A stretch of DNA of 64,000 nucleotides. It comes from an uncultured bacterium (GTDB lineage: Bacteria > Hydrothermota > UBA3072). A program made the translations under genes and the position numbers. How positions within the stretch are numbered: position 1 is the first letter of the stretch; every line of letters starts with the position of its first letter. The notes below the pieces were generated by a model, which ran no database searches, was not told the origin of the DNA, and saw only the letters and a list, made by a program, of their open reading frames with translations. The stretch spans positions 8,311-72,310 of the forward strand of contig CAZSEX010000004.1 in the NCBI GenBank assembly GCA_964606065.1, read 5' to 3'. Positions 21,341-52,471 of the stretch are shown one piece after another.

Positions 21341-21379
21341 GTACTTGACATCTGAAAAAGATTTCCTATTATAAATTTT

Positions 21380-22414
21380 ATGACGGATAAACAGTGGGAT
21401 TTATTGGTTGATATTATAAACGGAAAGAAAGTAGAACCTTTACCGGTGGGTTTTATTATAGACAGTCCATGGTTGCCGAACTGGTTTGGAATTTCTATAC
21501 TTGACTATTATACGAATGATAATTTATGGTTTGACGCGAATATGAAAGCTATAAATGAATTTTCCGATACAATTTTTCTGCCGGGTTTCTGGTCGGAATA
21601 TGGTATGTGTACCGAACCATCCGCTTTTGGTACAAAGTGTATATTTCCACAAAACGCGTTTCCCAATCCTTTAAAAATTATAAAGTCTTCGGATGAAATT
21701 AGCGACCTTGAGATTCCGGATCCAGAAAAAGATGGACTTCTTCCGTTTATGCTAAATAGGCTAAAATTGGCTCAACCAAGAATCGAAGACGCGGGACATA
21801 AAATAAAATTTTCTGTTTCCCGCGGACCTTTAAATATAGCAGGCTTCTTAATGGGAATGACAGAGTTTCTTATGTCTATAAAAACGGAGCCCGAAAAGGC
21901 GCATTCCTTACTAAATAAAATTACAGAGTATTTAAAAAAATGGCATCAGCTTCAAAGAGAAACTTTCCCTTCAATAGATGGTATTCTTATTTTGGATGAT
22001 ATAATTGGTTTTATAGGAGAGGAGGATTTTAAAACTTTCGGCCTTCCTTATTTTAAAGAACTCTACCATGCTGATATGATAGTAAAATTTCTTCATAATG
22101 ACGCTACTTACAAGTCATCTGTTAAGTATTTAAATGAAATGGGTATCAATCTCTTCAATATGGATTTTAATTCGGATATGAATGAATTAAAAGAGAAAAC
22201 AGGCAACAAAGTCACCATGCTTGGTAATATTCCACCAAGGGATGTTCTCGCGAAGGGAAATCCTGATGATGTAAAAGAATCCGTAAAAAAATTACTGGAT
22301 TCCCTTGAGGATAAAACAAGGGTAATCGTTTCCTGCGGAGGCGGCGTGCCGCCGGAGGTGCCGACGGAAAACATTAAAGCGTTTGTGAAAACCGTTAAAT
22401 CATATAAACTGTAA
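21380..22414 (+). CDS. Uroporphyrinogen-decarboxylase-fold protein, probable corrinoid methyltransferase component
   Basis: URO-D-like TIM barrel (GFIIDSPWLP, RGPLNIA, GNIPPRDVLAKG, SCGGGVPP). Adjacent to a corrinoid protein gene. Confidence 0.75.
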   Translation: MTDKQWDLLVDIINGKKVEPLPVGFIIDSPWLPNWFGISILDYYTNDNLWFDANMKAINEFSDTIFLPGFWSEYGMCTEPSAFGTKCIFPQNAFPNPLKIIKSSDEISDLEIPDPEKDGLLPFMLNRLKLAQPRIEDAGHKIKFSVSRGPLNIAGFLMGMTEFLMSIKTEPEKAHSLLNKITEYLKKWHQLQRETFPSIDGILILDDIIGFIGEEDFKTFGLPYFKELYHADMIVKFLHNDATYKSSVKYLNEMGINLFNMDFNSDMNELKEKTGNKVTMLGNIPPRDVLAKGNPDDVKESVKKLLDSLEDKTRVIVSCGGGVPPEVPTENIKAFVKTVKSYKL

Positions 22415-22429
22415 ATAGAATTAATTAAA

Positions 22430-22495
22430 GTTTCGAGTTCCGAGTAAAAAAACAGAAATAAAAACTTTGTGGTCTTTGTGTCTTTGTGTGAGAAT
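22430..22495. repeat. Solo right-facing repeat halves inside the methyltransferase cluster
   Basis: agtttcgagttccgagt 7-mers and ctttgtggtctttgtgtctttgtgtgagaat (22465-22495). Confidence 0.6.
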
Positions 22496-22626
22496 ATTTT
22501 TTGGTGATGCGGGTTCATAACAGTCATTGACAAAACTAAGAAAAGCAGTAGTTTTATTTTGATTGATAATAAGGAGCACTTGGAAATTATTATTGTAAAT
22601 CATATTTAATTTGAAGAGGAGGAGTC

Positions 22627-23268
22627 GTGTCTGTACTGGAAAAATTAAAGGAAAGCGTAATTGCCGGCGATGAGGCTAAAGCTGTCGAATATACAAAACA
22701 AGCTCTTGATGAAGGTATTGATGTAGAAAAAATATTGAATGACGGATTTATACCCGGGATGGATGTTGTGGGCGATTTGTTTCAAGCTAATGAAATTTAT
22801 GTTCCCGAGATGTTGATTTCCGCGAAAGCTATGAAAGCGGGTATGAAAATATTGGAGCCACTGTTGACCAAAGCGGGTGTTAAACGTGTAGGAAAGGTTG
22901 TTATAGGAACGGTAAAAGGCGATTTACACGATATAGGAAAGAACCTTGTAGCAATGATGCTGGAAGGTGGTGGGTTTGAAGTAATAGACGCGGGAGTCGA
23001 TGTTTCGTCACAAAAATTTATTGACCTGGTTAAAGAAAACGAACCCGACATTCTCTGCCTTTCTGCTTTGCTAACTACAACAATGGGTGAAATGAAAAAT
23101 GTGGTAGACAACTTTAAAGAGAAAGGGTTGCGGGATGATATTAAGATAATGGTCGGTGGTGCTCCGTTAAGTGAGGAGTACGCAAGAGAAATTGGTGCTG
23201 ATGGTTACTCAACCGACGCAGCTTCCGCGGTTCGTTTGGCGAAAAAATTGGTAGGCATGCAGGCGTGA
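22627..23268 (+). CDS. Corrinoid (B12-binding) protein of a methyltransferase system
   Basis: Four-helix cap (EIYVPEMLISAKAMK) plus the base-off/His-on motif TVKGDLHDIGKNLV, LSALLTTTM and MVGGAP. Confidence 0.93.
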   Translation: MSVLEKLKESVIAGDEAKAVEYTKQALDEGIDVEKILNDGFIPGMDVVGDLFQANEIYVPEMLISAKAMKAGMKILEPLLTKAGVKRVGKVVIGTVKGDLHDIGKNLVAMMLEGGGFEVIDAGVDVSSQKFIDLVKENEPDILCLSALLTTTMGEMKNVVDNFKEKGLRDDIKIMVGGAPLSEEYAREIGADGYSTDAASAVRLAKKLVGMQA

Positions 23269-24290
23269 AAAGACTCATAGATTTAGCAAAAAGTTTATAT
23301 TCTGAGAATAGTCGTTTGGTTGCTCCTTTGCTTGGCTTTCCGGGTGTTAAAATGGCTCGTTCGAGTATAAAACTCGCTCAGCAGAATTATGAAGAGCATT
23401 TTAAAGTGGTTAGTGCTCTGGTTGATAGTTTTAAACCGGATATGCAGTTTGTTCTTATGGATCTTTCGGTAGAGGCGAATGCCCTGGGGCTTGATACTCT
23501 TTTTCCCCCGAATGATTCGGCCACCGTTATGAAAAAACATGGTGAATTTGGTATGGATGAGTTGACTTCGCTCAAGAATATTAAGTTCGGTAGTGATAGC
23601 AGGCTGTTGGGTTATGTTAAGACTGTCGAATTAATGAAACAAAACTTCCCATCGGATGTAAAAGTCGGAGCTTATGTTACGGGTCCTTTTACTCTCGCCG
23701 GTCTTATAATCGGCGCTGAGGAGGCGGGTCTAATGGCTGTTAGAGATCCGGAAAAACTCGGAGAGATTTGCGCCTTTACAACCGAATGTATAATAAAATA
23801 TGCCAAACTTCTTCTTTCTGCGGGAGCTTTTGCGATTTGTGTGTTAGAACCGAGTGGGGTAATGCTCGGTCCTTCTCATTTTGAGAGATTTTCTTCGGTG
23901 AATGTAAAGAAAATCGCTGGAGTTTGTCACAATGCTGATGCAAATTGCGTATATCATGTTTGCGGTAACAGTATGCACCTTATAGAAAAAATGGCGGATT
24001 CGGAAGTGGACGGTTTAAGTCTCGATTCTAAGGATGTCGGAGTGAACCTTACGGAGGTTGCCGGAAAAATACCTGATGACGTAGTTATAATTGGCAATAT
24101 GAGCCCAACAAAGACAATCCTTTACGGCAGTCCAGAAGAAGTGAAAGAAGAGGTAAAAGATTTGCTTTATTCCATGAATCCATTCCCCAATTATGTTTTG
24201 AGCACAGGTTGCGACCTTCCATCGGAAACCCCGCTTGATAATATATCGGTTTTTATGGAAACCGGACGCAATTATGTTATTTGTGGTTAA
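23265..24290 (+). CDS. MtaA/CmuA-like (URO-D fold) methylcobamide methyltransferase
   Basis: DLSVEANALG, GPFTLAG, Zn-ligand-type motifs YHVCG and STGCDLP, GNMSP. Confidence 0.8.
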   Translation: MKRLIDLAKSLYSENSRLVAPLLGFPGVKMARSSIKLAQQNYEEHFKVVSALVDSFKPDMQFVLMDLSVEANALGLDTLFPPNDSATVMKKHGEFGMDELTSLKNIKFGSDSRLLGYVKTVELMKQNFPSDVKVGAYVTGPFTLAGLIIGAEEAGLMAVRDPEKLGEICAFTTECIIKYAKLLLSAGAFAICVLEPSGVMLGPSHFERFSSVNVKKIAGVCHNADANCVYHVCGNSMHLIEKMADSEVDGLSLDSKDVGVNLTEVAGKIPDDVVIIGNMSPTKTILYGSPEEVKEEVKDLLYSMNPFPNYVLSTGCDLPSETPLDNISVFMETGRNYVICG

Positions 24291-24494
24291 AGGGTTAATC
24301 CTTATATATATATAGGTTCAATATTCTGGAACAATACGGTTTCCGAATTCCAAAACAGGAAAATTGATGTTTTTTTGATAATATATGAGGCAATCTCTTT
24401 TGTAAAATAAAAAAAACGATAATAGGGTTGGGGGGATGGGTAATCTTGTGTTTTACAACTGTAATCTGACAATAAAAAAATAAAAATTTTACCC

Positions 24495-24523
24495 TTGACA
24501 ATTATTCTGTAACTTATTATAAT
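24495..24523 (+). promoter_or_regulatory. Perfect consensus sigma70 promoter for TBDR module 1
   Basis: TTGACA (24495-24500), N17, TATAAT (24518-24523). Confidence 0.75.
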
Positions 24524-24703
24524 AAAACCTATGAGGGCATGTAAATTAAATATTTCGAGGAATTCATCTGTTTTAATACATGGTTTACAATCCATCCAAA
24601 AACTGATAATAAAATACGGAAAAGAGCAATTGACGAGGTTGTAAGATTGTATATATTTTTTACCCTGTAAATTAATGAGTTCACTGGAATTAAGGAGGTA
24701 GTA

Positions 24704-24835
24704 ATAAGGATTAGAGGGAAACCGGAGTTTAAAGTATTTTCGGCAAAAATAAAACTGTTTGTCAGGCAATATTTACTTCAAGCAACTTTTTTAGTCTATT
24801 GTTTTGTAAACCTTAATGGAAGGAGGTTTTTATGA
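24704..24835 (+). CDS. Possible small leader ORF overlapping the TBDR1 start (non-canonical start)
   Basis: Frame open 24671-24835, TGA overlaps the TBDR ATG, AAGGAGG at 24692, peptide similar to the leader ORF at 46602. No ATG/GTG/TTG start. Confidence 0.25.
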   Translation: MRIRGKPEFKVFSAKIKLFVRQYLLQATFLVYCFVNLNGRRFL

Positions 24836-27800
24836 AAAGAGCAGGGAGAAAATTGCTGTTCAGGTGTTTTTTGTTTAGCTTGCTCGGATTTGTGTCTTTT
24901 TTTGCGGTTGTCCAGGAAATGGAAGCTGCTGTTACCGGAAAGGTTGCCGGTATAGTTGTCGACGCGAACACAGGCGAGCCTTTGCCCGGTGCCAACGTTA
25001 TAGTTGAAGGTACCGAGAGGGGAGCTGCCTGTGATGTGGATGGTTATTATTTTATAACGAGATTGGGTCCTGGTTCTTATAATGTGCAGGCAAGAATGAT
25101 GGGTTACAAAAGTGTTACAATTGCCGGTGTTAGAGTTATATCGGGGCATACAACTCCTGTAGACTTCGAGCTGGAAACAACGGTTGTAAGGGGTGAGGGA
25201 GTGACTGTGCAGGCTCAAAGAGAGATTATTAAAGTTGATCTTTCTTCGAGTTCCATAACTGCCGATAAAACTGATATAGAGGCAGTGCCTCTGATTTCCG
25301 ACGTTTCGGAATATCTTAACTTGCAGGCTGGAATAGATGGTTGGAGTGTGAGGGGTAGTGGTCTTGAGGACACAAAGTTGATGGCGGACGGCTTAATACT
25401 TGTTGACCAGAGAGTTAACGAGCCAATCCTTATGCCAAATATCAGCGAAATAAAAGAGGTGAGTTTGATAAAGGGAGGAATGAACGCCGAATTTTCGAAT
25501 GTTAGAGCAGGTGTTATTAATGTTGTAACCAGAGAAGGTTCTCCCGATAAATACGAGGGTTCATTCGAATTCAGATATACACCGGGTTATCAAAAGCATA
25601 ATGGACCATCTATCTTTGATCCCGACAATTATTATAATGAAATATATTTTCATAATGAGGTAGATACCGGTGTCCAGTGGAATGTAGACTTTTTTACAGA
25701 CGAGACTCTTGGACTTGACACAGTTGTCAGATTAGATAGCGTGTGTTGGAAAGGTCCGAATTATGTTTGGGGAAATCCTGAAAGCCCGTTTTATGATACA
25801 ATCAAGTGGAAAGACAGTTACAATCCCGATTGGAAGGGATGGGAGTATGAAGCTGAGGGCAAGCCGATAACAGCTGAGGGTTTTAGGGATCTGTTGCTCT
25901 GGAGACGCAGGATTAATACCGGTGGAGATACTTTACTGACTAATCCGGAAGAAATGTTTTCTATCTACAGCAACGATTCTATGTATGTTCCGATATGGGA
26001 TATAACAGTGGAAGGTGGCGATACAACTTATGAGTTGACAGGTTTTACCAGAGAGCCTTATACAATACCTGAAGACCAACCGAGGATAGGCAGCTACGGT
26101 GATATTCCGGATTGGACACTGGACGCGGGCTTTGGAGGTCCTGTTCCCATATTGAGTCAGTATTTAGGTGATATGACTTTTTACACTTCATATCGTGACC
26201 ACAATGAGGCGTTTCCACTTCCCGATAGCAGAGATTATTATCGTGAGCGTCAGGTGAGTTTGAAACTAACGTCTCGTTTTTATGATGGCAATGTAAAGGT
26301 TAATGCCATAGGGCGATACGGAATAACCAATACTCTTGCTCCTTGGGCTACCGGCGAAATAGTTGGTTCTTCCACGGTGGCGGATATCGGACAGGTTTAC
26401 CTTAGAGATGCTTTTGATATGATTTCGCCAAGAGGAGAATGGGATGGAATATATCATGGGAGTGATAAACTCAGGTCGAGAAACATCTCGAATGTTTGGA
26501 ATTTATATTCTTTAACTCCTTTTGATGTTATCTCGAGGATGTACGGTTTATCCATTCAGCACGCGTTGAGTGAAAACACATTTTATGATGTGAGGTTGAC
26601 TTATGTGAGGAGCCAAAATGAAGCTGATTTCTATTATGATGTTCCGGGAAGAATGAACGATACGGTTTTGGTATGGTTTGGTGAAAAGTTTAATGCCGAG
26701 GGAAATTATATTACAGATAGAAGCTTCTTGGCTGATTATACGGGTGATAATATTCCGTTTGGATTTCCTGACCCGGACTTTGAAATTGCCCGTATTGTTG
26801 GATCGGATTTAACGGAATGGGGTCCGGCTCACATGCAGGGGAGCTTTAACCACTCCTGGTCTCAAACTTATAACGCCCGTATCGATTTGACTTCCCAGAT
26901 AAATAAGTACAACGAGATAAAGACGGGTCTTGAAATTAACTATGATAAAATACATGAAAATTATGTAATAAATGAAGGTTTTTCATGGTCTGAGCCGGGT
27001 AAGGAAAAAGAAGGGAATGTTTATGTGACTGAATATGATGCGTATCCGATTTTAGCCGGCGCTTATATTCAGGACAAGATTGAATACGAAGGGATGTTCG
27101 CGAATATAGGTTTAAGGTTTGATTATTCGGATCCGAATAACAAATGGCCAAGCAGAGACAATCCTTATTCCTCCTTTTACACAGCCGGGTCAAAAAACCA
27201 GCTTTTTGATCAGGATTCTATAATAGAAGATGTGCCGGCTCTCTTGAAACTGAGTCCCCGTGTTGGGATTTCTTTTCCCATATTGGAGAGAAGTAAGCTC
27301 TTCTTTAATTATGGGCATTTTTACTCCCTTGCTCCGAACAAGAACCGCTTTATGATTGGCTGGGGAAGGCCCTCTCAACCTATTAAATACTTGGGAAATC
27401 CATACCTGGATATGTCCAGGACGATTTCCTATGAAGTGGGCTTTGAGAGCAATATTGCCAATCAGTTCCTGGCCAGAGTTACCGGTTACTATAAGGATAT
27501 GGATAACGAGTTTACTGAGGTTGGATATGCAAATGAGCTGGGTTCTGTCGATCTTAATTATACGACGTATGAAAATTTAAGATATAGTGATACAAGAGGT
27601 TTTGAGTTAGAGTTACGAAAACAACATGGAAGATTTTTTACCGGTTGGGTTATTTATGATTATAGAGTAACAAGTACGGGGTATCTCGGGAAACGGGATC
27701 ATTATTTTGTTATAAAAGATGAATTGACATCGGGTTTTAATGATCCCGAACAAACAGAACCCGTGCCTCAACCTGTATGGAGGGCGCAAGCGACCTTTAA

Positions 27801-28296
27801 GACACCTCTGGATTGGGGAATGTTTTTTGGAGGTTATAGTCTTTCCTTATTATATAGCTGGAGAGCGGGTAGATATGAAACATGGAATCCTTTCCCGGGA
27901 CAGACAGGTTTAGTTCAATATCAGGTGCAGAACAATATTCAATGGCAGGATGAAAAAAACATGGATTTGAGTCTCAGCAAGAATATTTCGGTTGCGGGAA
28001 CCGCCATCACTTTGTTTATGGATATTCACAATGTTTTTGATTGGCAAGAACTTTCTTCACAGGCTTTCGATGGCGATAGAGATAAATATATTAAGTCACT
28101 TCATCTTGAGATATTCGGGGAAGAACCTTATAAGAGCGCGGGAATAGGTATTCCACCCGAGGAGGGTGAAGACCCTGATGTTCTTGGGGTGGATTTCAGA
28201 AGCGATAAGAAACAATATATAAATGACCCAAATAGAACTTTTATGTATTATCTGGATCCTAGATACGTGCAGTTTGGCATAAGGTTCTCTTTTTAG
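24832..28296 (+). CDS. TonB-dependent receptor 1 (N-terminal carboxypeptidase-regulatory-like domain, plug, barrel)
   Basis: Signal peptide, GKVAGIVVDANTGEPLPGANV, plug GGMNAEFSNVRAGVINVVT, SPRVGISFPI, C-terminal PRYVQFGIRFSF. Confidence 0.9.
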   Translation: MKRAGRKLLFRCFLFSLLGFVSFFAVVQEMEAAVTGKVAGIVVDANTGEPLPGANVIVEGTERGAACDVDGYYFITRLGPGSYNVQARMMGYKSVTIAGVRVISGHTTPVDFELETTVVRGEGVTVQAQREIIKVDLSSSSITADKTDIEAVPLISDVSEYLNLQAGIDGWSVRGSGLEDTKLMADGLILVDQRVNEPILMPNISEIKEVSLIKGGMNAEFSNVRAGVINVVTREGSPDKYEGSFEFRYTPGYQKHNGPSIFDPDNYYNEIYFHNEVDTGVQWNVDFFTDETLGLDTVVRLDSVCWKGPNYVWGNPESPFYDTIKWKDSYNPDWKGWEYEAEGKPITAEGFRDLLLWRRRINTGGDTLLTNPEEMFSIYSNDSMYVPIWDITVEGGDTTYELTGFTREPYTIPEDQPRIGSYGDIPDWTLDAGFGGPVPILSQYLGDMTFYTSYRDHNEAFPLPDSRDYYRERQVSLKLTSRFYDGNVKVNAIGRYGITNTLAPWATGEIVGSSTVADIGQVYLRDAFDMISPRGEWDGIYHGSDKLRSRNISNVWNLYSLTPFDVISRMYGLSIQHALSENTFYDVRLTYVRSQNEADFYYDVPGRMNDTVLVWFGEKFNAEGNYITDRSFLADYTGDNIPFGFPDPDFEIARIVGSDLTEWGPAHMQGSFNHSWSQTYNARIDLTSQINKYNEIKTGLEINYDKIHENYVINEGFSWSEPGKEKEGNVYVTEYDAYPILAGAYIQDKIEYEGMFANIGLRFDYSDPNNKWPSRDNPYSSFYTAGSKNQLFDQDSIIEDVPALLKLSPRVGISFPILERSKLFFNYGHFYSLAPNKNRFMIGWGRPSQPIKYLGNPYLDMSRTISYEVGFESNIANQFLARVTGYYKDMDNEFTEVGYANELGSVDLNYTTYENLRYSDTRGFELELRKQHGRFFTGWVIYDYRVTSTGYLGKRDHYFVIKDELTSGFNDPEQTEPVPQPVWRAQATFKTPLDWGMFFGGYSLSLLYSWRAGRYETWNPFPGQTGLVQYQVQNNIQWQDEKNMDLSLSKNISVAGTAITLFMDIHNVFDWQELSSQAFDGDRDKYIKSLHLEIFGEEPYKSAGIGIPPEEGEDPDVLGVDFRSDKKQYINDPNRTFMYYLDPRYVQFGIRFSF

Positions 28297-28314
28297 GAAA
28301 GGAGGTTATTTAAA

Positions 28315-30651: not shown

Positions 30652-30664
30652 GGGGGCGAGAGAA

Positions 30665-31639: not shown

Positions 31640-31741
31640 CGGAGTTTAATCAATAGTCTGAAGAAATATAGCGAGTTAAGAATGGAGATTGTTCTTCAAG
31701 AGTAGGGTTGGATTTTTTTTAAAAACTATAAGGAGTAAGGC

Positions 31742-36295: not shown

Positions 36296-36331
36296 CGAAA
36301 AATGTTTGCCGATTATTAGGAGGTAAGATTA

Positions 36332-37936: not shown

Positions 37937-37951
37937 GGTTAGGAGTAGAAG

Positions 37952-39037
37952 ATGAAAGATAACCAAAACATAAAGAATGAACCCTCGTTAAAAGAAATAT
38001 TTAAGGATGACTTTTATATCGGAGCTGCGCTTAATCTGGATCAAATCGAGGGTAAAGATACCGATGGAATAGCTGTTGTAGAGAAGCACTTTAACAGTAT
38101 CGTTGCTGAAAATATTTTAAAGTGGGAAGAAATACATCCTGAAATAGATAGGTATAATTTTGAACCGGCTGATAAGTACGCGGCTTTCGGAGAAAAAAAT
38201 AAGATGTTTGTGGTTGGGCATACCCTTGTATGGTTTTATCAAACTCCCGATTGGGTGTTTGAAGATGATTCCGGAAAAGCGCTCAGCAGAGAAGCGTTGC
38301 TCGCCCGGATGAAAAACCACATCTTCACGGTAATGGGCCGTTATAAAGGTAAAATACACGGCTGGGACGTTGTAAACGAGGTGGTTGTCGAAGATGGTTC
38401 TTTTAGAAAATGCAAGTGGTGTGAGATTATCGGGGAAGATTATGTACAGAAGGCATTCGAGTACGCGCGTGAGGCTGACCCGAACGCGGAACTTTATTAC
38501 AACGATTTTGATTATTATAAGAAACCTAAACGAGATGGTATTATTAAGCTGATAGAAAATTTAAAGTCGAAGGGCGTTCGAATAGACGGAATCGGCATAC
38601 AGGCGCACTGGTTTCTCGAACATCCTGAAATAGCTGAAATCGAGAAGTTTGTTGTAGAGCTGGGTAAGTTAGAGGTCAAGATTATGATTACGGAAATGGA
38701 TGTTGGGGTTACTCCTTTTTATCCCTGTGATACACCCGCGAGAGATTTATCGTCTTTTGACCCTGAAACACAGAAAAAATTAAATCCTTATACCGAAGGT
38801 GTTCCGGATTCGGTTCTTAAAGAACAGGCGGACAGGTACGCGGAGTTGTTTTCATTGTTTTTAAAACACCGTGACAAGTTTAGCAGAATAACATTCTGGG
38901 CGGTTCACGACAAACAATCCTGGCGCAGTTATTTACCTATAAGAGGCAGGACCGAATACCCGATGTTGTTCGATCGTGATTGTAAACCCAAACCGGCTTT
39001 CTATGCCGTTGTGGAAACAGGTCAAAGTAGATGGTAA
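37952..39037 (+). CDS. GH10 endo-1,4-beta-xylanase, no signal peptide
   Basis: AENILKWE, GHTLVW, WDVVNEV (acid/base), YYNDF, GIGIQAH, ITEMDV (nucleophile), ITFWAVHD. Confidence 0.95.
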   Translation: MKDNQNIKNEPSLKEIFKDDFYIGAALNLDQIEGKDTDGIAVVEKHFNSIVAENILKWEEIHPEIDRYNFEPADKYAAFGEKNKMFVVGHTLVWFYQTPDWVFEDDSGKALSREALLARMKNHIFTVMGRYKGKIHGWDVVNEVVVEDGSFRKCKWCEIIGEDYVQKAFEYAREADPNAELYYNDFDYYKKPKRDGIIKLIENLKSKGVRIDGIGIQAHWFLEHPEIAEIEKFVVELGKLEVKIMITEMDVGVTPFYPCDTPARDLSSFDPETQKKLNPYTEGVPDSVLKEQADRYAELFSLFLKHRDKFSRITFWAVHDKQSWRSYLPIRGRTEYPMLFDRDCKPKPAFYAVVETGQSRW

Positions 39038-39064
39038 TAGGAGATAACAGACAAAGTGCTGCAC

Positions 39065-39090
39065 TTGACATAGATAAATGGTGATATAAT
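39065..39090 (+). promoter_or_regulatory. Internal promoter for the pfkB-GH3-GH116-ASKHA genes
   Basis: TTGACA (39065-39070) and extended -10 TGATATAAT (39082-39090). The spacing to TATAAT is short (14 nt). Confidence 0.45.
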
Positions 39091-39123
39091 ATACTTCAAA
39101 ATTAACACACAAGGAGCTTAAAA

Positions 39124-40341
39124 ATGACAGATGAAAAAGATCTTGAAATTGTAGCTGCAGGTCATACCTGCCTTGATTTAATACCGGCTTTCACAATCGA
39201 GGGGACAGTTGATAGGATGACTGATGTCCTTGTACCCGGTAAAATGATAGACATGGGTGAATGTGTGGTTGTGGGAGGTGGCCCTGTCACCAACGCCGGA
39301 GTATCTATAAGGAGACTCGGTGTCAAGACTGAACTAATAGGCAAAATTGGTGACGATGATTTTGGAAAACAGATTCTTCGGTGGTATGAAGAACATGAAG
39401 GGCATTTTAAAGGAATTAAAATGGTCGAAGGTGAATCTACATCTTATACAATAGCGATTTGTATTCCCGGAATAGACCGTTTTTATCTTCATCATTGCGG
39501 AGCCAATGATACTTTTGGCTATGAAGATATGGATTTTGATATCGTGGAACGTTCAAAACTTATGCTTTTCGGATATCCGCCGTGGATGAAGAAACTTTAC
39601 AGCAACACAGGAGCGGAATTGACTAAAATACTTAAAAAGACAAGAGAATTAGGAACAACGATAGCTCTGGACCTTTCTCTTCCTGATGTCGACGGTTACG
39701 CCGAAAATATAGATTGGTTTTCTATTATGGAAAATTGGATTCCTCTTTCTGATATTATGGTACCCAGCGCGGAAGAGATTTTTTACTTTTTATACAAAGA
39801 TAAGTTCCTTGAAAAGAGGAGAAGTCTAAAAGAGAGAGAAACGGTTCTCGACAATATGAGTGTGAAAGAGATTTCTGACATTGGTAAAGATTTAATTAAA
39901 ATGGGTACGGCAATAGCGATGGTAAAATGCGGGCACAGAGGATTGTATGTGCGAACCGCCGGCAAGGAACGTCTGAGCAAATTAGGAGCGGCAGGATGTT
40001 CAGACCTCGATAACTGGGCTAACCGTGAACTCTGGTTTCCTGTTTACGAAGAGGAAAAATTCGTGGGTGCTCTCGGTTCAGGCGATTCCGCTATTGCAGG
40101 ATTCCTTTCCGCTTTTGTGTGGAATCATTCAGTCGAATCCTGTTTAAGGTATGCTAACGCTGCCGGCAGCATGAATGTTACCGTCCCCGATGGTCTTACC
40201 TGGAATAAAGGATTTGAAGATCTTACGAGGCGAATCGAAGCGGGCTGGAAGACAAGAGAATTGAAAATCGATGAAGATGGTTGGAAATTTGAAAAAGGGT
40301 TCTGGGTGGGACCTGATAACAGCGGTAAATGGGAATCATAA
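39124..40341 (+). CDS. PfkB/ribokinase-family carbohydrate kinase
   Basis: GGGPVTNAG...RRLG...GKIGDDDFG and C-terminal GALGSGDSAIAGFL. Confidence 0.88.
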   Translation: MTDEKDLEIVAAGHTCLDLIPAFTIEGTVDRMTDVLVPGKMIDMGECVVVGGGPVTNAGVSIRRLGVKTELIGKIGDDDFGKQILRWYEEHEGHFKGIKMVEGESTSYTIAICIPGIDRFYLHHCGANDTFGYEDMDFDIVERSKLMLFGYPPWMKKLYSNTGAELTKILKKTRELGTTIALDLSLPDVDGYAENIDWFSIMENWIPLSDIMVPSAEEIFYFLYKDKFLEKRRSLKERETVLDNMSVKEISDIGKDLIKMGTAIAMVKCGHRGLYVRTAGKERLSKLGAAGCSDLDNWANRELWFPVYEEEKFVGALGSGDSAIAGFLSAFVWNHSVESCLRYANAAGSMNVTVPDGLTWNKGFEDLTRRIEAGWKTRELKIDEDGWKFEKGFWVGPDNSGKWES

Positions 40342-40363
40342 AATACTAAATGAGGAGGTAAGA

Positions 40364-42187
40364 ATGTCAAAAAAAGAGAGAGTTAAATTTATAAGTAAGC
40401 AGATTTCAAAAATGACTCTTGAGGAAAAAGTCGGACAGGTTTTAACTTTCACGTGGAGGGGTACGGTGTTTACTCCCAGCGGAATCGAACAGGTTACGAA
40501 ATTGCACTGCGGCGGACTTTGTCTCGAGCCGTACGCTGTGGAAACATGTAAGAACCTGTATTGGGGTAATTCCCAGATAGATACGACTTTTAAGAAACCG
40601 AAAGATTATTTCAAAATAGCCGAGACTTATTTCGCGGGTTCAGATTTTGGGATCAGCATAACCCCGGAAGAATACGCGAAGAGACTTAAAAGATGGCAGA
40701 AAATAGCCATGGATCGTCCTTCTGGAGTTCCTCTGCATATCACAGTCGATTTTGAAGGCGATTTCAAAAATGATTATATGGCGGGGGGAATAAGACAGTT
40801 TCCCGCTCCCATGGGTATGGCTGCGATAGGTGATAAAAAAATAACTTATAAAATCGGTGAGATTATCGGCAAAATGTTATCGGCTATGGGTGTTACACAG
40901 ATGTATTCACCGGTCTGTGACGTGAATACAAATCCCAAGAATCCTGAAATAGGAGTTCGATCTTTCAGTGATGATCCGCAAACTTGCGCGGATCACGCGG
41001 TAGCTTTGATTAAAGGTTTACAGGATAATGGTATAGCAACCACTGCCAAACATTTCCCGGGAAGAGGCAGCTCGGATACCGATGCTCACGATGTCCTGGA
41101 AGTGTTAAACTTAAGTAAGCAGAGGATGCACGAAGTCGATCTGGTTCCTTTTAAAGCCGCTATCGAGGCGGGTACAAAAGCTATTATGACCGGGCATTCC
41201 GTTTATCCGGCTTATGATAAAAAATATCCCACGACTTTATCCGAAAACATACTGACTGGTTTATTAAGAGAAGAGCTTCAATTTAAAGGGGTAATTGTTT
41301 CGGACGCTATCGGTATGGCTGCCATACTTAAGAAATGGCCTCTTCCGCAGGCCTGTGTAATGGCTTTAAAAGCGGGAGTCGATACGATACTTCTGAAAGC
41401 CGACGATGAATCCAGGTCTCAGACTTTCTTTGGGATTAAACGAGCTGTGGAAAATGGCGAGTTATCCGAAGAAAGGTTAGATGAGGCGGTTACTCGTCTC
41501 CTGCGAATGAAGTATGACCAGGGCCTATATAAAACGGCTCCCAAAATTAGTCCTGAGAAAACTTACAAGATCACCACAGATAAAAAAGTTATAGATTTTT
41601 CCTGGGATATAGCGAAGAAAGCTCAAATTATAATGAGAGATGATAAGAAATTACTGCCGCTCAATGATAAAAAGAAGATACTTGTAATAGAACAGCGTAT
41701 TCCCTATGAGTTCTGCGGTAAAGATCCTTATATGCATATGCATATGTTCTGTGAAAGAATGGTCGATCATTCCACGAATTTGATTCTTGTTGATACGGAA
41801 TTTTCAGCATTCGAAGAAGAAATTAAAGAATGTATGGAACTCGCGAAGCAGGCGGACCTTGTGGTGATGACCAATTATTACGCGCGAATAGTTAAATCCG
41901 GTAACAATCAACTTTTAGCTAAGAAACTGAAAAAAGCCGGGAAAGATATCGTCGTTGTTACCAATAGCCCGTATGTCGAGGGCACGACCGATGTTGCCGA
42001 TGCTGCTATTTGCAACTTCAGCGCTACGCCCGATTCTATCAGGGCTTCCGCGGATTTACTTTTTGGTAAGTTTAAACCGCGCGCTGCCACAAAAGTACCC
42101 GTAGATATCGGAAAGCAAAAATCTACTCCCCAGAAAAAACTGAAGGCCAAAAAGAAATCAAAAAAGCTGGATTTATCGTATTGTTAA
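40364..42187 (+). CDS. GH3 glycoside hydrolase, NagZ-like subfamily (possibly a phosphorylase)
   Basis: MTLEEKVGQ, VDFEG, SPVCDVNTNPKNPEIGVRSFSDDP, KHFPGRG...DAH, IVSDAIGM. SD GAGGAGG supports ATG 40364. No signal peptide. Confidence 0.88.
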   Translation: MSKKERVKFISKQISKMTLEEKVGQVLTFTWRGTVFTPSGIEQVTKLHCGGLCLEPYAVETCKNLYWGNSQIDTTFKKPKDYFKIAETYFAGSDFGISITPEEYAKRLKRWQKIAMDRPSGVPLHITVDFEGDFKNDYMAGGIRQFPAPMGMAAIGDKKITYKIGEIIGKMLSAMGVTQMYSPVCDVNTNPKNPEIGVRSFSDDPQTCADHAVALIKGLQDNGIATTAKHFPGRGSSDTDAHDVLEVLNLSKQRMHEVDLVPFKAAIEAGTKAIMTGHSVYPAYDKKYPTTLSENILTGLLREELQFKGVIVSDAIGMAAILKKWPLPQACVMALKAGVDTILLKADDESRSQTFFGIKRAVENGELSEERLDEAVTRLLRMKYDQGLYKTAPKISPEKTYKITTDKKVIDFSWDIAKKAQIIMRDDKKLLPLNDKKKILVIEQRIPYEFCGKDPYMHMHMFCERMVDHSTNLILVDTEFSAFEEEIKECMELAKQADLVVMTNYYARIVKSGNNQLLAKKLKKAGKDIVVVTNSPYVEGTTDVADAAICNFSATPDSIRASADLLFGKFKPRAATKVPVDIGKQKSTPQKKLKAKKKSKKLDLSYC

Positions 42188-42199
42188 GGAGGATATTAT

Positions 42200-44782
42200 A
42201 TGCCAAAATCTTCTGGTATAGAAATAAAAGACGTTTTTACTATTAAAGGGAAGAAGATATCAAAAATTTATGACGATAACTACATGTCCGTTCATTTTCA
42301 GGGAATGTCGAAAACTCTTCAGTTCCCTCACACTATAGCTCTTCAGGGTGCTCCTACCTGTTCTATAGGTTTATCTCCCGATGGTTTATACAACAGGCTT
42401 AACAACGCGGGCAGGCTGATTTTGTTGAATCAAAACGCGATTCAATTTGCTTCTGCTCCGTTTATTCGTATCAGGGGAGAAAAGGAGGAGGAGGAAGAGG
42501 AAGAGGAAGAGATTTTAGTGGAAGAAGATACTTTTATGCTTACCAGAAGGGATCCGGAGAAGGTAGAGGAAATCGATGATGTACCGGCATTGAAGAATTA
42601 TTATCATAAACCGCTTCCCGAGAAAGATATCACTATTTCGATTGCCACACCTCTCCTGGAAATGGCATATAAAATCGATAAAGTCAGTGTTAAAAGACGT
42701 CTGGTTTCTCCCTTATTTGCTGAGAGAGATCAGGCTTTAATGCCCCTTGGCGTCGAGGAATATGAGATTATTAATAACAGTGACGAGGAAAAAGAAATTA
42801 CCCTGGTGTTGCCCAGACCCTCTCTTGTCAATCTTCAGGAAAAAGAGCTGAAGCCGACGGATCAGGATACAGTTTATATATGTTCCGCGCCGGTTAAAGG
42901 TCATGTTCATAAAGAATTTGAATCGTCGGGTATGGAGGGAGTGGTTATGGGTAGTAAGGAATGTAAAGATAGAATGGTAATTGCCGTACCGAAGCTGAAA
43001 GATGTAAATATTGACACAAACCCCTATTTCTGCCTGAATTACCTGAAACAGGATTTGTTGTTGAATGATGACGGTAGTTTTTATCGGAAAAGAGAGCCTC
43101 TTGTCAAACAGGATTATGGCGCGGCGATAAGTTTATCGTTTACATTGAAATCTGAATCATCAATGAAAATACCTTTTGCTGTCGGTCTGGATTTTCCCGT
43201 GCAAACTTATATCGATGGTAAAAAATTCGATCGGAAATATATAAAGAGTTTCAAAAACGAAAAAACCCGTACGGTCGATATGGCAAAAGTCGCTCTGGAT
43301 AATTACAAGGATTGGTTCGACAGAACGATGGCTATCCAGAGTAAGATATACGATTTAATAAGGAAAAATCCGGCTTATAAAAATGATAAAGCCGGGGCAT
43401 TAAGGTTAACCAGACTGATTCTTAATGAGTTTAGTTTTCCCCTGTCGAATGCCGCGGTCTGGGTTGAAGATAAAGACAGCAGCCAGAGAGCGAGATTCTT
43501 AGAGTGTTTTGATTACGCTTACATAGATCCTTCCGATGTGGATTGGTATTCCATGGTGCTTATGATACTTTTTCCGGATATAGAAAGGGAACTCTGTCAG
43601 AGTTTTGTGGATTCTATCAACAGAGAAAACAAAAATAAACGTTTTTATCATTTGCACGCGTCTTTTGTTGAAGCCAGAAAGCACTTCAAGGATTATCCTG
43701 AAGAGTATGAGGGTCAATCACTGACACAGATATATGATCAAATTAAGATTAAAGGTGCCGTTTCTCATGATGTCGGCGCTTTACCCAAAGGGCATCCATT
43801 GCGTAACGTCAGTGACTATGCCTGGTACAATGACAACTATTGGGTAGACCTTTTTCCCAAACTTGCCACAAGAGTGCTGCGCAATGTTAAATTTATGAAA
43901 GATAAGGACTTTTTGAAGAAAAATTGGGAAACTCTGAAATTCGGGTTCAAGCATCTTCAGACTCATGATCATGACGGTGACGGAATACCCGAAGGTAATC
44001 CCGGTGAAGTAAAAAATACTTTCGATAATTTGACTCTGTTTGGAGTGGATGCTTATGATGCCACTATTTTTATGGCCGGCTGTCGAGCCATGATTGTAAT
44101 GGCGGATATGATGAAAGACAAAGAAGCGAAAAAGGAATACGAGAAAGCCTTTGAAAAAGCTCAGACGGAGTTCGAAAAATTGTGGAGAGAGAAAGAAAAC
44201 AAAAAAGGCGAGAAGTTGGAATATTATATAACCTGCTATGACCAGGATACAGGTGAAGAAAATACCGATGTATGGCTTAATCAACTGGATGCGATATGGG
44301 CGTTAATAGCGATCGGAGAAGAGCCTTTTATTCCTGAGAAAAGAGTTAAAAAGATTCTCAAGACGATTTATAAAAACAACAGAACTTTCATGGGTTGGGC
44401 TATGTGCCGGACTGAAGACGGAGGAAAAGTCGAATCGGAGCAGGGTCAGGATGTATATACCACTTCAAATTATGTTTTCGCGGAGCTTCTCGACTATTAC
44501 GGTCTTAGGAAAGAAAGCAAGGAAGTTTATAAAGCCATGGATAAGGTTATTTTCGATTACGCGAACTCGTTAATCTCTCCGGATAACCTGAGAGCTGAAT
44601 TGGAAATAGAAGCAGGAGAAACTGTTCCAACCCCGCATTATATCGTAGCTGCTTATCCCAGACCGGGAGCTGTAATGACGCAACTGGTTCTTCAGTATAT
44701 TAAAGAACTTCAGAAGGAAAAAGGCAAAGCAAAGGTAAACTCCGGGCAATTGAAATCCTTTATAAGTGTTTTAATGAAGTAA
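42200..44782 (+). CDS. GH116 (GBA2-type) glycoside hydrolase
   Basis: RFLECFDY (nucleophile Glu), HDVGALP, W.DLFPKLA, HDHDGDGIPEG...NTFD (acid/base Asp), NQLDA.W. No signal peptide. Confidence 0.8.
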   Translation: MPKSSGIEIKDVFTIKGKKISKIYDDNYMSVHFQGMSKTLQFPHTIALQGAPTCSIGLSPDGLYNRLNNAGRLILLNQNAIQFASAPFIRIRGEKEEEEEEEEEILVEEDTFMLTRRDPEKVEEIDDVPALKNYYHKPLPEKDITISIATPLLEMAYKIDKVSVKRRLVSPLFAERDQALMPLGVEEYEIINNSDEEKEITLVLPRPSLVNLQEKELKPTDQDTVYICSAPVKGHVHKEFESSGMEGVVMGSKECKDRMVIAVPKLKDVNIDTNPYFCLNYLKQDLLLNDDGSFYRKREPLVKQDYGAAISLSFTLKSESSMKIPFAVGLDFPVQTYIDGKKFDRKYIKSFKNEKTRTVDMAKVALDNYKDWFDRTMAIQSKIYDLIRKNPAYKNDKAGALRLTRLILNEFSFPLSNAAVWVEDKDSSQRARFLECFDYAYIDPSDVDWYSMVLMILFPDIERELCQSFVDSINRENKNKRFYHLHASFVEARKHFKDYPEEYEGQSLTQIYDQIKIKGAVSHDVGALPKGHPLRNVSDYAWYNDNYWVDLFPKLATRVLRNVKFMKDKDFLKKNWETLKFGFKHLQTHDHDGDGIPEGNPGEVKNTFDNLTLFGVDAYDATIFMAGCRAMIVMADMMKDKEAKKEYEKAFEKAQTEFEKLWREKENKKGEKLEYYITCYDQDTGEENTDVWLNQLDAIWALIAIGEEPFIPEKRVKKILKTIYKNNRTFMGWAMCRTEDGGKVESEQGQDVYTTSNYVFAELLDYYGLRKESKEVYKAMDKVIFDYANSLISPDNLRAELEIEAGETVPTPHYIVAAYPRPGAVMTQLVLQYIKELQKEKGKAKVNSGQLKSFISVLMK

Positions 44783-44822
44783 AGATCGCACCTGGTTTTG
44801 AAAAACATAGAGGATTTAGAAA

Positions 44823-46409
44823 ATCGGTCGAATATACTTTCCGCAATTTAATAAAAGCAAAGTAATAGAACCCGGTAAAATCGTTCTGGAGTATGCACGG
44901 GAATTGGGTGTGCCTATAAATATTGGTTACGGTAGATTGGGAATTCGTAAGGAATGTAGAATCAAAGTAGAAGAAGGTTCTGAGGCTTTAAATAAAAGAA
45001 CTAAAGCAGAGAAAGGATTAGGCAAAGAGGAAAGATTAGCTTCACAAGTTGTAACTGAAAACGGCGAACATGATGTATATGTGAGTTTTACGCAGAGTGG
45101 TTTTATAACCAATATCCTGACGCACGCGTCAAAAACAAGAAAATTTTTTTTAAATCCCCTGATTCAAAAAAAAGGCAATAAGGTTTGTTCAGAAGGAAAT
45201 GAAATTGATGATTACCGCAATGGCGTATTTGGGATTGCTGCTGACATTGGGACAACGACTGTTGTACTACATTTAATGGATTTAGAAAAAGGCGATATTA
45301 TCCACACTTCCGCGTTCGAAAATCCTCAAAAAAGGATTGATGGAGGTAATGTAATAAGCAGGATTCTATTTGACGGTAAGAATCCCGGCAAATTGCATAA
45401 TATTTTGACAAAAAAAATAAATGAAGAAATAAAGAAAATGCCTGTAGATAGTCGAGAAATATATGATTTTGTGGTCGTGGGAAACAGCACAATGAGAGAT
45501 TTGTTTTTCGGACTCGATGTGCAGAGTCTCGGAGTTAGCCCCTATCAATCCATTACGGAAAGAGAGAAGGGAAGAACTTTCATGAGAGTGAAGGCTCCTG
45601 AACTCGGTCTAAGATTAAACAAAAGCGCTGAAGTTTATGGTCCTCCTTTGATCGGCTCCCATATTGGATCCGACGCTCTCGCAGTTTCTCTTTCCTGCGG
45701 AATTTTCGACGACACCGAGGAAATTGCGATGTGCATCGATATTGGTACTAATGGTGAGATTGTTCTGAAGTACGAAAAGGGAATTATCGCGACTTCCTGT
45801 GCGGCAGGTCCGGCTTTAGAGCCTATGCCCGCATTATCCGGGGCGATTGACAGGTTCAGTATAAAAGGTGGTAAAATAAGCTGGCAAACTATAGGAGATA
45901 TCGAACCGATTGGCATTTGTGGTTCCGGTATAATCGATGTTATGGGAGAGTTAAGAAAAAACAATATGATGGATGAAGATGGGTATCTTAAAAACGGCAA
46001 AGTTTTTAAGATAACAGATAACATTCAGATAACTCAAACCGATATAAAAGGAACGAAAGGATTTTTGTTTGGCAAAGCAGCTATATCCCTGGGGATAAAA
46101 GCTCTGTTAGAAGAGAAAAATTTAACCACGGCCGAATTAGACAAAGTGTATATCGCAGGTTCCTTTGGCACCTATATAGATATAGAGAATGCCAGGATAA
46201 TTGGTCTCGTTCCGGATATCCCTTCCGAAAAGATTATCCAGGTCGGTAATGCCGCGGCTCTCGGAGCCCAGGAAATATTATTGAGTTCAGAAATGAGAAA
46301 AACAGCTGAGAACGCGGTAAATAAAATAGAGCATATTGGTCTGGAACTTCTTCCCAATTATGGGGAGAGATTGATGCTGATCGAGCAGAAATTTAAGAAA
46401 TTTTGTTAG
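44823..46409 (+). CDS. RACo/RamA-like ASKHA corrinoid reductive activator with a degenerate N-terminal 2Fe-2S domain
   Basis: ADIGTTTVV, NPQ...GGNVISRI, GNSTM, HIGSDALA, DIGTNGEI, SCAAGPALE, GICGSG, AGSFG, GNAAALGA. The frame is open upstream to 44820. The start is uncertain (ORF track TTG 44904; ATC 44823 has an SD). Confidence 0.8.
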   Translation: MGRIYFPQFNKSKVIEPGKIVLEYARELGVPINIGYGRLGIRKECRIKVEEGSEALNKRTKAEKGLGKEERLASQVVTENGEHDVYVSFTQSGFITNILTHASKTRKFFLNPLIQKKGNKVCSEGNEIDDYRNGVFGIAADIGTTTVVLHLMDLEKGDIIHTSAFENPQKRIDGGNVISRILFDGKNPGKLHNILTKKINEEIKKMPVDSREIYDFVVVGNSTMRDLFFGLDVQSLGVSPYQSITEREKGRTFMRVKAPELGLRLNKSAEVYGPPLIGSHIGSDALAVSLSCGIFDDTEEIAMCIDIGTNGEIVLKYEKGIIATSCAAGPALEPMPALSGAIDRFSIKGGKISWQTIGDIEPIGICGSGIIDVMGELRKNNMMDEDGYLKNGKVFKITDNIQITQTDIKGTKGFLFGKAAISLGIKALLEEKNLTTAELDKVYIAGSFGTYIDIENARIIGLVPDIPSEKIIQVGNAAALGAQEILLSSEMRKTAENAVNKIEHIGLELLPNYGERLMLIEQKFKKFC

Positions 46410-52458: not shown

Positions 52459-52471
52459 AGGGGAGGAAAGA

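Follow-up and report, generated by a model that had tools for sequence, protein, structure and literature searches.

The window analysed here, a 64-kb stretch of contig CAZSEX010000004.1 from an uncultured bacterium of the Hydrothermota, carries, within a locus for the uptake and hydrolysis of xylo-oligosaccharides, the genes of a predicted corrinoid-dependent methyl-transfer system of the cytoplasm. The set of components is complete: a corrinoid carrier protein (CorP) with the DxHxxG motif, two proteins of the uroporphyrinogen decarboxylase (URO-D) fold, which are designated as URO-D #1 (UROD1) and URO-D #2 (UROD2), and an ASKHA ATPase resembling the corrinoid activase RACo. Gene content, motifs, fold, conserved synteny and statistical gene linkage were observed, and a tie between B12-dependent methyl transfer and glucuronoxylan use is well supported. 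The reading that we favour, and that on balance appears probable, is that a methoxy compound derived from xylan, most likely 4-O-methyl-glucuronate, is O-demethylated in a B12-dependent reaction and its methyl group handed to a thiol. More tentatively, the URO-D family marked by the HNDA motif of UROD1 could be the first corrinoid-dependent demethylase of carbohydrate (alkyl) methyl ethers, acting on 4-O-methyl-glucuronate without O2 and delivering the methyl group to homocysteine in most hosts.

Few biopolymers are more abundant than glucuronoxylan, in which most glucuronate side chains are 4-O-methylated. We know of no established route by which anaerobes dispose of this methyl group. In open-access papers and preprints we found no enzyme for the demethylation of 4-O-methyl-glucuronate and no link between methylglucuronic acid and a corrinoid system or a demethylase; the sole documented sugar O-demethylase there was an O2-dependent P450 for 6-O-methyl-galactose (PMC6292453).

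In the window, the two URO-D genes and the CorP gene directly precede the first of two outer-membrane modules containing a TonB-dependent receptor (TBDR)-like protein, as a first-pass annotation of the DNA had described. The URO-D/CorP/URO-D triad is kept at the same chromosomal spot in four relatives (L003, L088–L090), and the order GH43-GH10-PfkB-GH3-GH116-RACo-TBDR is kept in four others (L087, L094–L096; GH, glycoside hydrolase). Because both the position of the triad and the gene order from GH43 to TBDR are conserved, the arrangement is not a chance juxtaposition.

Relatives of URO-D #1 form at least 7,903 clusters at 90% identity, all named only "uroporphyrinogen decarboxylase (family protein)", and occupy at least 557 loci in genomes of GTDB species from about ten phyla. 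For the neighbourhood analysis we took the best 80 of these loci, one per species and 59–81% identical to URO-D #1, from Ignavibacteriota/Melioribacteraceae, Bacteroidota, KSB1, Calditrichota, Marinimicrobia/Fidelibacterota, Spirochaetales, Chitinispirillaceae/Fibrobacterota, Pontiella and Verrucomicrobiota. Open reading frames (ORFs) were called in these loci, all neighbours were grouped by all-against-all BLASTP independently of the window's own genes, and the recurrent groups were named with Pfam. Genes were counted within 10 kb, and since many contigs are truncated, the counts are lower bounds.

Such a survey had been suggested by the first-pass annotation, and the linkage of UROD1 to carbohydrate-active enzyme and uronate genes was clearly positive: an alpha-glucuronidase (GH115 or GH67) was present in 24 of the 80 loci, xylan genes in 32, uronate genes in 22 and a corrinoid or one-carbon (C1) module in 25. 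By family, the neighbours were corrinoid proteins (23 loci), GH43 (19), GH115 (17, plus four fragments), short-chain dehydrogenase/reductase (SDR; 14), LacI (14), GH88/105 (13), PF02574 homocysteine S-methyltransferase (HcyMT; 13), the PF02965 MetH activation domain (MetH_act; 13), GH10 (12), GH8 (8), PF00756 esterases (7), GH30, GH67, XylA/XylB, UxuA and pterin-binding methyltransferase (pterin-MT; 5 each), and CE15 glucuronoyl esterase (3). Direct neighbours of UROD1 were often GH115, GH43, SDR, GH88/105 and XylA genes, and no aromatic-catabolism genes occurred among the recurrent neighbour clusters of the 80 loci. We regard 4-O-methyl-glucuronate as the best candidate substrate because the neighbours most specific to the family, namely GH115, GH67, CE15, UxuA, UxuB/KduD-like SDR and GH88/105, all handle glucuronic acid or its 4-O-methyl derivative.

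UROD1 is the constant part of these loci, and its partner modules vary. The commonest architecture is a tight operon, GH115-GH43-CorP-HcyMT-MetH_act-UROD1, with gaps of 5–7 nt in Melioribacter sp. OK-6-Me (L036); it is also present in a metagenome-assembled genome (MAG) of Melioribacter roseus (L021) and in Rosettibacter firmus (L091). Variants are UROD1-pterinMT-MTHFR_C-MTHFR-CorP, in which MTHFR is methylenetetrahydrofolate reductase (L052, L057 and L069), HcyMT-UROD1-pterinMT-CorP-GPH-GPH-GH43-GH10 (L049), UROD1-CorP-UROD2 (the window, L003 and L088–L090) and UROD1-CorP-MtaB (L004 and L005). In the last variant, MtaB (PF12176, 4e-161) follows CorP in the slot of URO-D #2, at 11958–13325 in L004 and 2340–3707 in L005. 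These two loci are close relatives of the window (UROD1 76–78% identical), MtaB also lies near CorP in L142 and L171, and its occurrence in non-acetogenic bacteria of the FCB group is unexpected.

A control centred on the methyl acceptor was obtained by searching genomes with an HcyMT alignment, in which the Zn-binding Cys triad is invariant (N-C-G and G-G-C-C-G-T). The search gave at least 595 relatives, of which the best 80 loci were analysed. CorP adjoins HcyMT in 61 of them and MetH_act in 36. Because a URO-D-family protein adjoins HcyMT in most of these loci and a pterin module (PF00809) in only one, the URO-D proteins are predicted to be the methyl-donor modules for HcyMT. The architecture would then be a split, folate-independent MetH-like core with URO-D donor modules, of which we found no description in open-access papers and preprints. 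Several URO-D classes adjoin HcyMT and are told apart by their metal-site motifs, true UROD1 having LHNDAP and SCGGGMP. An alpha-glucuronidase was found in 12 of the 23 HcyMT loci with true UROD1 and in 1 of the 57 without (Fisher p = 2.5e-7), and any xylan gene in 14 of 23 and 5 of 57, respectively (p = 3e-6); the loci were taken one per GTDB species and are not phylogenetically independent, so that these p-values are optimistic. Xylan genes are absent from all 29 loci in which only other URO-D classes occur. The comparison shows that the glucuronoxylan link belongs to UROD1 and not to the corrinoid core.

The other URO-D classes occur with CorP-HcyMT(-MetH_act) in Prolixibacteraceae, Mariniphaga, Draconibacterium, Maribellus and Cyclobacteriaceae (L116, L119, L121, L131, L133, L136, L138, L141, L143, L147, L148, L150, L157, L160 and L169–L174). 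They include proteins of about 540 aa with F-F-V-C-G-H and A-P-G-C-D-L-P, and others with L-H-I-C-G-D or Q-H-C-C-G-K. None of those with the CorP-HcyMT core lies near xylan genes, and they look like further, putative methyl-donor:homocysteine systems.

The metal site sets URO-D #1 apart from characterised relatives. H239-N-D241-A is invariant in 77 of 77 sequences, and S-C319-G-G-G is kept in 75 of them. The match to MtaA is barely detectable (E 0.0065) and puts L-H-N-D at the H-x-C position of MtaA, with Asp at the first Cys ligand position of the zinc site; the third-ligand position is Gly, with a Cys two residues upstream, and the MtaA-type His-x-Cys...Cys site is absent. In this superfamily His-Cys-Cys marks S/Se-methyltransferases, and a change from Cys to a carboxylate is typical of O-methyltransferases (Kountz & Balskus, PMC10418091). 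An hhalign placement of HNDA on the upstream HNADANC of URO-D #2 was rejected; the ungapped placement on H-x-C was preferred because MAFFT and UroD/MtaA-anchored alignments support it. The AlphaFold model of URO-D #1 (pLDDT 84, pTM 0.87) is a (beta-alpha)8 barrel with H239 and C319 at C-terminal strand ends. It is equally close to UroD and MtaA (TM about 0.75–0.77), and a PDB fold search with the model found no characterised structure closer than these two. Trp, Asp, Asn and Arg are frequent among the invariant residues, a composition that recalls sugar-binding sites but is weak evidence. From its context, URO-D #1 is a candidate substrate:corrinoid methyltransferase on the donor side.

Neither URO-D protein reaches the NCBIfam cut-offs for the MtaA/CmuA family: with TIGR01463 and NF040654 (cut-offs 235 and 400 bits), URO-D #1 scores 92 and 71 bits and URO-D #2 scores 119 and 126. 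The heme-biosynthesis enzyme HemE was rejected as an identity (TIGR01464, 65 and 87 bits vs a cut-off of 303). The URO-D N-terminus reads PVGFIIDSPWLPNW, without the RQAGR-type sequence that we take to be the N-terminal substrate-binding Arg motif of HemE.

CorP is predicted to bind its cofactor base-off/His-on, and the first-pass description "His-on" is correct because the protein has D-L-H-D-I-G (DxHxxG), S-A-L (SxL) and G-G. Its best NCBIfam matches, MtgC-like and TIGR02370, are both under cut-off. The start of URO-D #2 overlaps the CorP stop by 4 nt, and URO-D #1, CorP and URO-D #2 form an operon. The two URO-D proteins appear to be different enzymes. The best PDB match of URO-D #2 is MtaA of Methanosarcina (4AY7, 1.7e-17), with H-V-C aligning on H-I-C and G-C on G-C, so that the His-Cys-Cys zinc ligands are kept; orthologs conserve YH[VIT]C and S-x-G-C-D-L-P. 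It is thus a putative MtaA-like Zn-thiolate methyltransferase. URO-D #2 orthologs also accompany HcyMT in eight loci (L012, L032, L036, L108, L123, L125, L132 and L175).

The RACo-like gene is the last of the pfkB-GH3-GH116 run, and the Pfam map confirmed the earlier observation that the methyl-transfer components bracket the GPH, GH43 and GH10 genes. Its placement between GH116 and the second TBDR module is kept in L087, L094, L095 and L096. The first-pass annotation called the protein the matching activator of the system. It has the Raco_middle and RACo_C_ter ASKHA ATPase domains (Pfam), but three of the four [2Fe-2S] Cys ligands and the ancestral start have been lost. The window protein reads GYGRLGIRKEC...RLASQ where relatives have GCGGLGICGEC...RLACQ, leaving one ligand, and the loss is shared by P0241 (99% identical), P0242 and P0243 (89%), which read GYGRLGIRKEC...RLAS[QYH]. 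The PF00111 ferredoxin domain is present in all RACo relatives at 71% identity or less and has no match in the window protein or in its 89–99% identical relatives. An in-frame TAG at 44817–44819 replaces the ancestral ATG region, and the first canonical start is a TTG at 44904; these changes lie within 44817–45060 of the window. Scores against AcsV (NF040756, 244 bits vs a cut-off of 800) and RamA (TIGR04270, 148 vs 500) are below threshold.

Against L087, the RACo gene has a dN/dS of about 0.1 (pN 0.17, pS 0.70) and appears to be still under purifying selection; since close relatives are alike, the cysteine loss would therefore be inherited and tolerated. We interpret the domain as a Cys-less, vestigial "ferredoxin" retained on the activase, which may need an external electron donor or may keep only an ATP-dependent role. 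In split MetH, a Fer2+DUF4445 protein was shown genetically to replace the PF02965 activation domain (Price et al., PMC5764234), which supports the view that the RACo-like protein of the window and the MetH_act of its relatives are alternative solutions to one problem.

The following scheme is inferred from these data in its substrate, its acceptor and all of its catalytic steps. Substituted xylo-oligosaccharides would enter through the TBDR modules and then the GPH symporters, and would be trimmed by cytoplasmic GH10, GH3 and GH116. Signal peptides are predicted on all three proteins of module 1 (TBDR-like, 778-aa and PorV/PorQ), GH43 has a lipoprotein-type signal (N-terminus ...LFLTQC), and no signal peptide is predicted on GH10, PfkB, GH3, GH116, RACo, URO-D #1, URO-D #2 or CorP. 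Because of this distribution, the locus would import oligosaccharides and complete their hydrolysis in the cytoplasm, the compartment also predicted for the methyl-transfer proteins. There, URO-D #1, with its His-Asp-type metal site, would bind a xylan-derived methyl ether, most probably 4-O-methyl-D-glucuronate, free or on an aldouronate, and the cob(I)amide of His-on CorP would abstract the methyl group, unblocking the uronate for the route through UxaC, UxuB, UxuA and 2-keto-3-deoxygluconate (KDG) kinase. The methyl-Co(III) protein would then discharge onto a thiol. The RACo-like ATPase would rescue oxidised Co(II) and, because its own [2Fe-2S] ligands are lost, would use an external electron donor.

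The first-pass annotation saw no pterin-binding methyltransferase and left the methyl acceptor unknown. The former was borne out, as tblastn and Pfam scans of all ORFs found no pterin-binding, homocysteine methyltransferase or MetH-activation homolog in the window. For the latter, relatives point to homocysteine, through HcyMT with an intact Zn triad, or to tetrahydrofolate (THF), through pterin-MT and MTHFR. Discharge in most relatives would thus be by a MetH-type homocysteine methyltransferase giving methionine, and in some by the pterin-binding pair. In the window the MtaA-like His-Cys-Cys URO-D #2 is the sole candidate in cis and points to a thiol. The proposal that sugar methyl groups are removed by B12-dependent demethylation was upheld as to the glucuronoxylan link, with the qualifications that the substrate is deduced from neighbours and that the window has no alpha-glucuronidase. 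The alternative that methyl groups are added is unlikely given the catabolic context.

Within the window, uxaC and a PfkB kinase favour the demethylation of 4-O-methyl-glucuronate, and several points weigh against it. The 64-kb window has no GH115 or GH67, UxuA, UxuB or HcyMT, and its RACo-like protein has lost Fe-S ligands. A corrinoid gene is missing from the 10-kb surroundings of UROD1 in about two-thirds of its loci, and basal UROD1 subclades stand in other contexts, LacI-UROD1-GH2 and UROD1-DUF6807-GFO/IDH/MocA-Oxidoreduct_C. Known substrates of corrinoid demethylases are aryl ethers and methanol, the latter cleaved by MtaB with zinc assistance, and we know of no case in which cob(I)amide removes the methyl group of an alkyl (sugar) ether. 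By our estimate, the methyl load of glucuronoxylan looks too large for homocysteine as a sink. URO-D #2 may be a second donor-side enzyme, since its orthologs co-occur with HcyMT and MtaB takes its slot, and the true acceptor module may then be encoded elsewhere. The optimistic Fisher p-values belong here as well.

The basal contexts are those of L027, L046, L055, L062, L063, L071 and L077 and of L011, L013, L015 and L016, and they suggest that these UROD1 relatives may act on other, possibly methylated, sugars. As for loci without a corrinoid gene, UROD1 genes with and without a linked CorP intermingle in a neighbour-joining tree, and in two MAGs UROD1 lies in a sugar locus with CorP-HcyMT-MetH_act on another contig (CAZJWE01, L015/L126; CAYGFI01, L073/L171), so that CorP can act in trans. 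A PF07470 (GH88/GH105) unsaturated-uronyl hydrolase gene directly follows UROD1 in L006, L010, L019, L025, L047, L050, L056, L061 and L067, frequently with an SDR gene just upstream of UROD1, and the unsaturated-uronate step is not explained by the pathway.

The chief rival keeps the same machinery and makes the donor a methoxylated phenolic from xylan or lignin-carbohydrate complexes (of the ferulate, sinapate or vanillate type), so that the system would be a conventional aryl-methyl-ether O-demethylase. Its chemistry needs no new precedent, as aryl methyl ethers are established substrates of corrinoid O-demethylases, and a small methyl flux would suit a homocysteine sink. Possible feruloyl esterases (PF00756) are found in 7 of the 80 UROD1 loci and CE15 in 3. 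We nevertheless think this unlikely: alpha-glucuronidases (24 loci) and uronate genes (22) outnumber those esterases, the frequent direct neighbours are the carbohydrate genes given above with no recurrent aromatic-catabolism gene, and the invariant UROD1 residues recall sugar-binding sites, weak as that evidence is. It is improbable, in our judgement, that the triad is a general C1 or methyl-S/Se system of the type-1 MGC-like kind (for methanol, methanethiol/dimethyl sulfide or methylselenide) that merely lies beside hemicellulases and has no sugar substrate. This would leave unexplained both the linkage to GH115, GH67, GH43 and UxuA across phyla and the result of the HcyMT-locus control; URO-D #1 lacks His-Cys-Cys, and Pfam scans of the window showed no selenium- or sulfur-metabolism genes nearby. 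Such a role would accord with the His-Cys-Cys site of URO-D #2, which is typical of S/Se methyltransferases, with the replacement of URO-D #2 by MtaB in L004 and L005, and with the anchoring of the triad to upstream housekeeping genes in the window lineage while downstream hemicellulase genes vary; type-1 mlp clusters likewise have no folate methyltransferase (PMC10418091).

Two further explanations assign URO-D #1 another reaction. It could be a corrinoid-independent (methyl)uronate enzyme, for example a Zn-assisted eliminase that converts 4-O-methyl-glucuronate to methanol and a 4,5-unsaturated uronate; the latter would go to GH88/105 and a KduD-like SDR, and the corrinoid genes would treat methanol or be unrelated. 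The recurrence of SDR-UROD1-GH88/105 (L006, L025, L047, L050 and L061), the many UROD1 loci without CorP and the MtaB genes adjoining UROD1-CorP in L004 and L005 fit this picture. We give it little credence, given that in at least 25 loci UROD1 ends a tight CorP-HcyMT-MetH_act operon that otherwise has no methyl-donor module, that the tree mixes UROD1 genes linked to CorP with others that are not, and that two of the same genomes carry a CorP module in trans; we also know of no such activity for the URO-D fold. Hardly any weight falls on an acceptor-side role, in which URO-D #1 would use methyl groups of methyl-THF or methanol to methylate a nucleophile such as a sugar, or would serve a four-part methionine synthase as its non-orthologous folate-binding module. 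The characterised URO-D-fold relatives MtaA and MetE do act on the acceptor side, MetE binding methylfolate, and pterin-MT with MTHFR, or MtaB, can be read as donors feeding UROD1. However, the commonest architecture already has the acceptor HcyMT and no other donor module, the context is catabolic, and O-methylation from a methyl-cobamide is thermodynamically unattractive. The folate-module version was rejected, as UROD1 co-occurs with pterin-MT in some loci and hence is not the folate module there.

By NCBIfam scores and motifs, the system of the window falls outside MtaA/MtbA, HemE, AcsV/RamA and type-1 mlp. Its general plan is that of the three-component O-demethylases (Odm/Vdm of Acetobacterium dehalogenans, Mtv of Moorella, and those of Desulfitobacterium), which comprise a substrate-specific and a second methyltransferase, a His-on carrier and an ATP-dependent activase of the RACE/RACo type, and some of whose methyltransferase I (MT-I) enzymes are UroD-superfamily proteins (PMC10418091); in the window, URO-D #1 and URO-D #2 are the candidates for the two methyltransferase roles. 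Those systems demethylate aryl methyl ethers in acetogens and use a pterin-binding (THF) acceptor module; the window has a sugar-ether context and no pterin module, and its family has HcyMT or MtaA-like candidate acceptor modules in polysaccharide-degrading hosts of the FCB and PVC groups. Split MetH and MtgBCD of Phaeobacter and Ruegeria also use a separate HcyMT (PF02574), a corrinoid protein and reactivation proteins, and MtgBCD is a dual methionine synthase and glycine-betaine demethylase whose substrate methyltransferase shares its corrinoid protein with methionine synthesis (PMC12478193). There, however, the donor is the MttB-family MtgB or a pterin domain and the setting is osmolyte catabolism, whereas here a URO-D-fold donor would serve xylan catabolism, and the HcyMT and pterin (PF00809) modules are absent from the window. 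MtaABC shares with the window an MtgC/MtaC-like CorP and the zinc ligands of URO-D #2, and differs in family scores (119–137 bits vs cut-offs of 235–400) and in the missing Cys ligands of URO-D #1. To our knowledge, no coenzyme M pathway is to be expected in bacteria of this type.

In type 1 mlp clusters the Mlps are almost invariably His-Cys-Cys proteins, sulfur- or selenium-linked and mostly from Firmicutes (PMC10418091), whereas URO-D #1 has His-Asn-Asp, is linked to glucuronoxylan and falls outside the group on its motif. The P450 demethylase of 6-O-methyl-D-galactose in marine Bacteroidota (PMC6292453) resembles the proposed system in that a polysaccharide utilization locus encodes the removal of a methyl ether that blocks catabolism, but it is an oxidative, O2-dependent monooxygenase without homology that releases formaldehyde, whereas the system of the window would be O2-independent and methyl-conserving. 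In short, the machinery is known, and the donor-module family, the predicted substrate class, the coupling and the ecological setting would be new.

If the proposed function holds, a very large family annotated as "uroporphyrinogen decarboxylase" gains a function, and corrinoid O-demethylation reaches sugar ethers, beyond aryl ethers and methanol. Methyl groups of the plant cell wall would then have a folate-independent route to methionine, and those of xylan would become methionine and S-adenosylmethionine (SAM) methyls in widespread anaerobes that degrade polysaccharides (Ignavibacteriota, Bacteroidota, Fibrobacterota, KSB1, Marinimicrobia, Kiritimatiellia and others). Vitamin B12 availability would be tied to hemicellulose turnover in sediments, digesters and guts, and an oxygen-free demethylase would be at hand for biomass conversion. 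The hypothesis is directly testable, as the cultured hosts Melioribacter (L036) and Rosettibacter firmus (L091) carry the full operon.

The gene map of the 64-kb window, based on the ORF listing with Pfam and NCBIfam scans, is given in Table 1.

Table 1. Genes and promoter-like sites of the window (nucleotide positions in the window; match values from Pfam unless stated otherwise)
Feature	Position	Strand	Basis
URO-D #1 (UROD1, 344 aa)	21380-22414	+	PF01208 3.8e-41
Corrinoid (cobamide) carrier protein CorP	22627-23268	+	PF02607 2.9e-27, PF02310 5.4e-30
URO-D #2 (UROD2, 341 aa)	23265-24290	+	PF01208 1.1e-54
TBDR-like protein, module 1	24832-28296	+	Pfam and NCBIfam
778-aa protein, module 1	28315-30651	+	no Pfam match
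PorV/PorQ-family protein, module 1	30665-31639	+	Pfam and NCBIfam
Three GPH/MFS_2 symporters	31742-33169, 33328-34752, 34871-36295	+	PF13347, 1e-88 to 1e-98
GH43 beta-xylosidase/arabinofuranosidase	36332-37936	+	PF04616 and PF17851
Cytoplasmic GH10 xylanase	37952-39037	+	PF00331 5e-101
PfkB-family sugar/keto-deoxy-acid kinase	39124-40341	+	PF00294
Cytoplasmic GH3	40271-42187	+	Pfam
Cytoplasmic GH116	42200-44782	+	Pfam
RACo/RamA-like ASKHA corrinoid activase	44904-46409 (frame open from 44820)	+	PF17651 1.3e-36, PF14574 1.3e-55
Outer-membrane uptake module 2 (TBDR-like, 781-aa protein, PorV-like)	46703-53449	+	
Partial uxaC, glucuronate isomerase	3-836	-	PF02614 2.6e-90
metE, cobalamin-independent methionine synthase	53569-55839	-	PF01717 and PF08267
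Sigma-70-like promoter candidate upstream of URO-D #1 (TTGACA-16-TATTAT)	21345-21372	+	11/12 consensus matches
Sigma-70-like promoter candidate upstream of TBDR module 1	24495-24523	+	12/12 consensus matches
Perfect promoter-like site before uptake module 2	46489-46517	+	consensus scan

Every gene from 21380 to 53449 lies on the + strand. Since promoter-like sites precede URO-D #1, the first TBDR module and the second, three transcription units are suggested, with RACo closing the second; the promoter candidates are consensus pattern matches and nothing more. By-eye inspection of the three promoter regions gave no obvious shared operator motif, and an Rfam scan of the whole window gave no cobalamin or SAM riboswitch or other RNA above the gathering score. 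A search for GH115, GH67, UxuA, GH88 and SDR homologs found none in the 64 kb. The first-pass annotation rightly placed uxaC in the window, where only its N-terminal 278 codons are present, as the gene runs past the left window edge. The IolC and KDG-kinase matches of the PfkB kinase (NCBIfam) are weak and all below cut-off, and the three GPH symporters are 45–76% identical in pairs.

The outer-membrane modules at 24832–31639 and 46703–53449 are paralogous, with identities of 57, 44 and 66% for the TBDR-like, ~780-aa and PorV-like proteins, and a perfect TTGACA-17-TATAAT site precedes each. The TBDR-like proteins have a CarboxypepD_reg N-terminus and their ~780-aa partners no Pfam family; the arrangement resembles an uptake system of non-SusC/D type. 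As listed, the ORFs of PfkB and GH3 overlap by 71 nt; because GH3 of relatives has only 606–607 aa as against 638 aa in the window, translation of GH3 probably starts at an internal ATG. metE directly follows the xylan cluster both in the window and in L094, and Rfam found no cobalamin or SAM riboswitch upstream of it. Further downstream, a 1063-aa protein (58363–61554) combines a methyl-accepting chemotaxis protein signalling domain with an SBP_bac_5 solute-binding domain, an unusual chemoreceptor architecture, and is followed by CheW, CheY and a partial CheA. The co-directional 32-kb cluster (22000–54000) has a sustained, strongly positive GC skew, and the skew is near zero or negative on both flanks.

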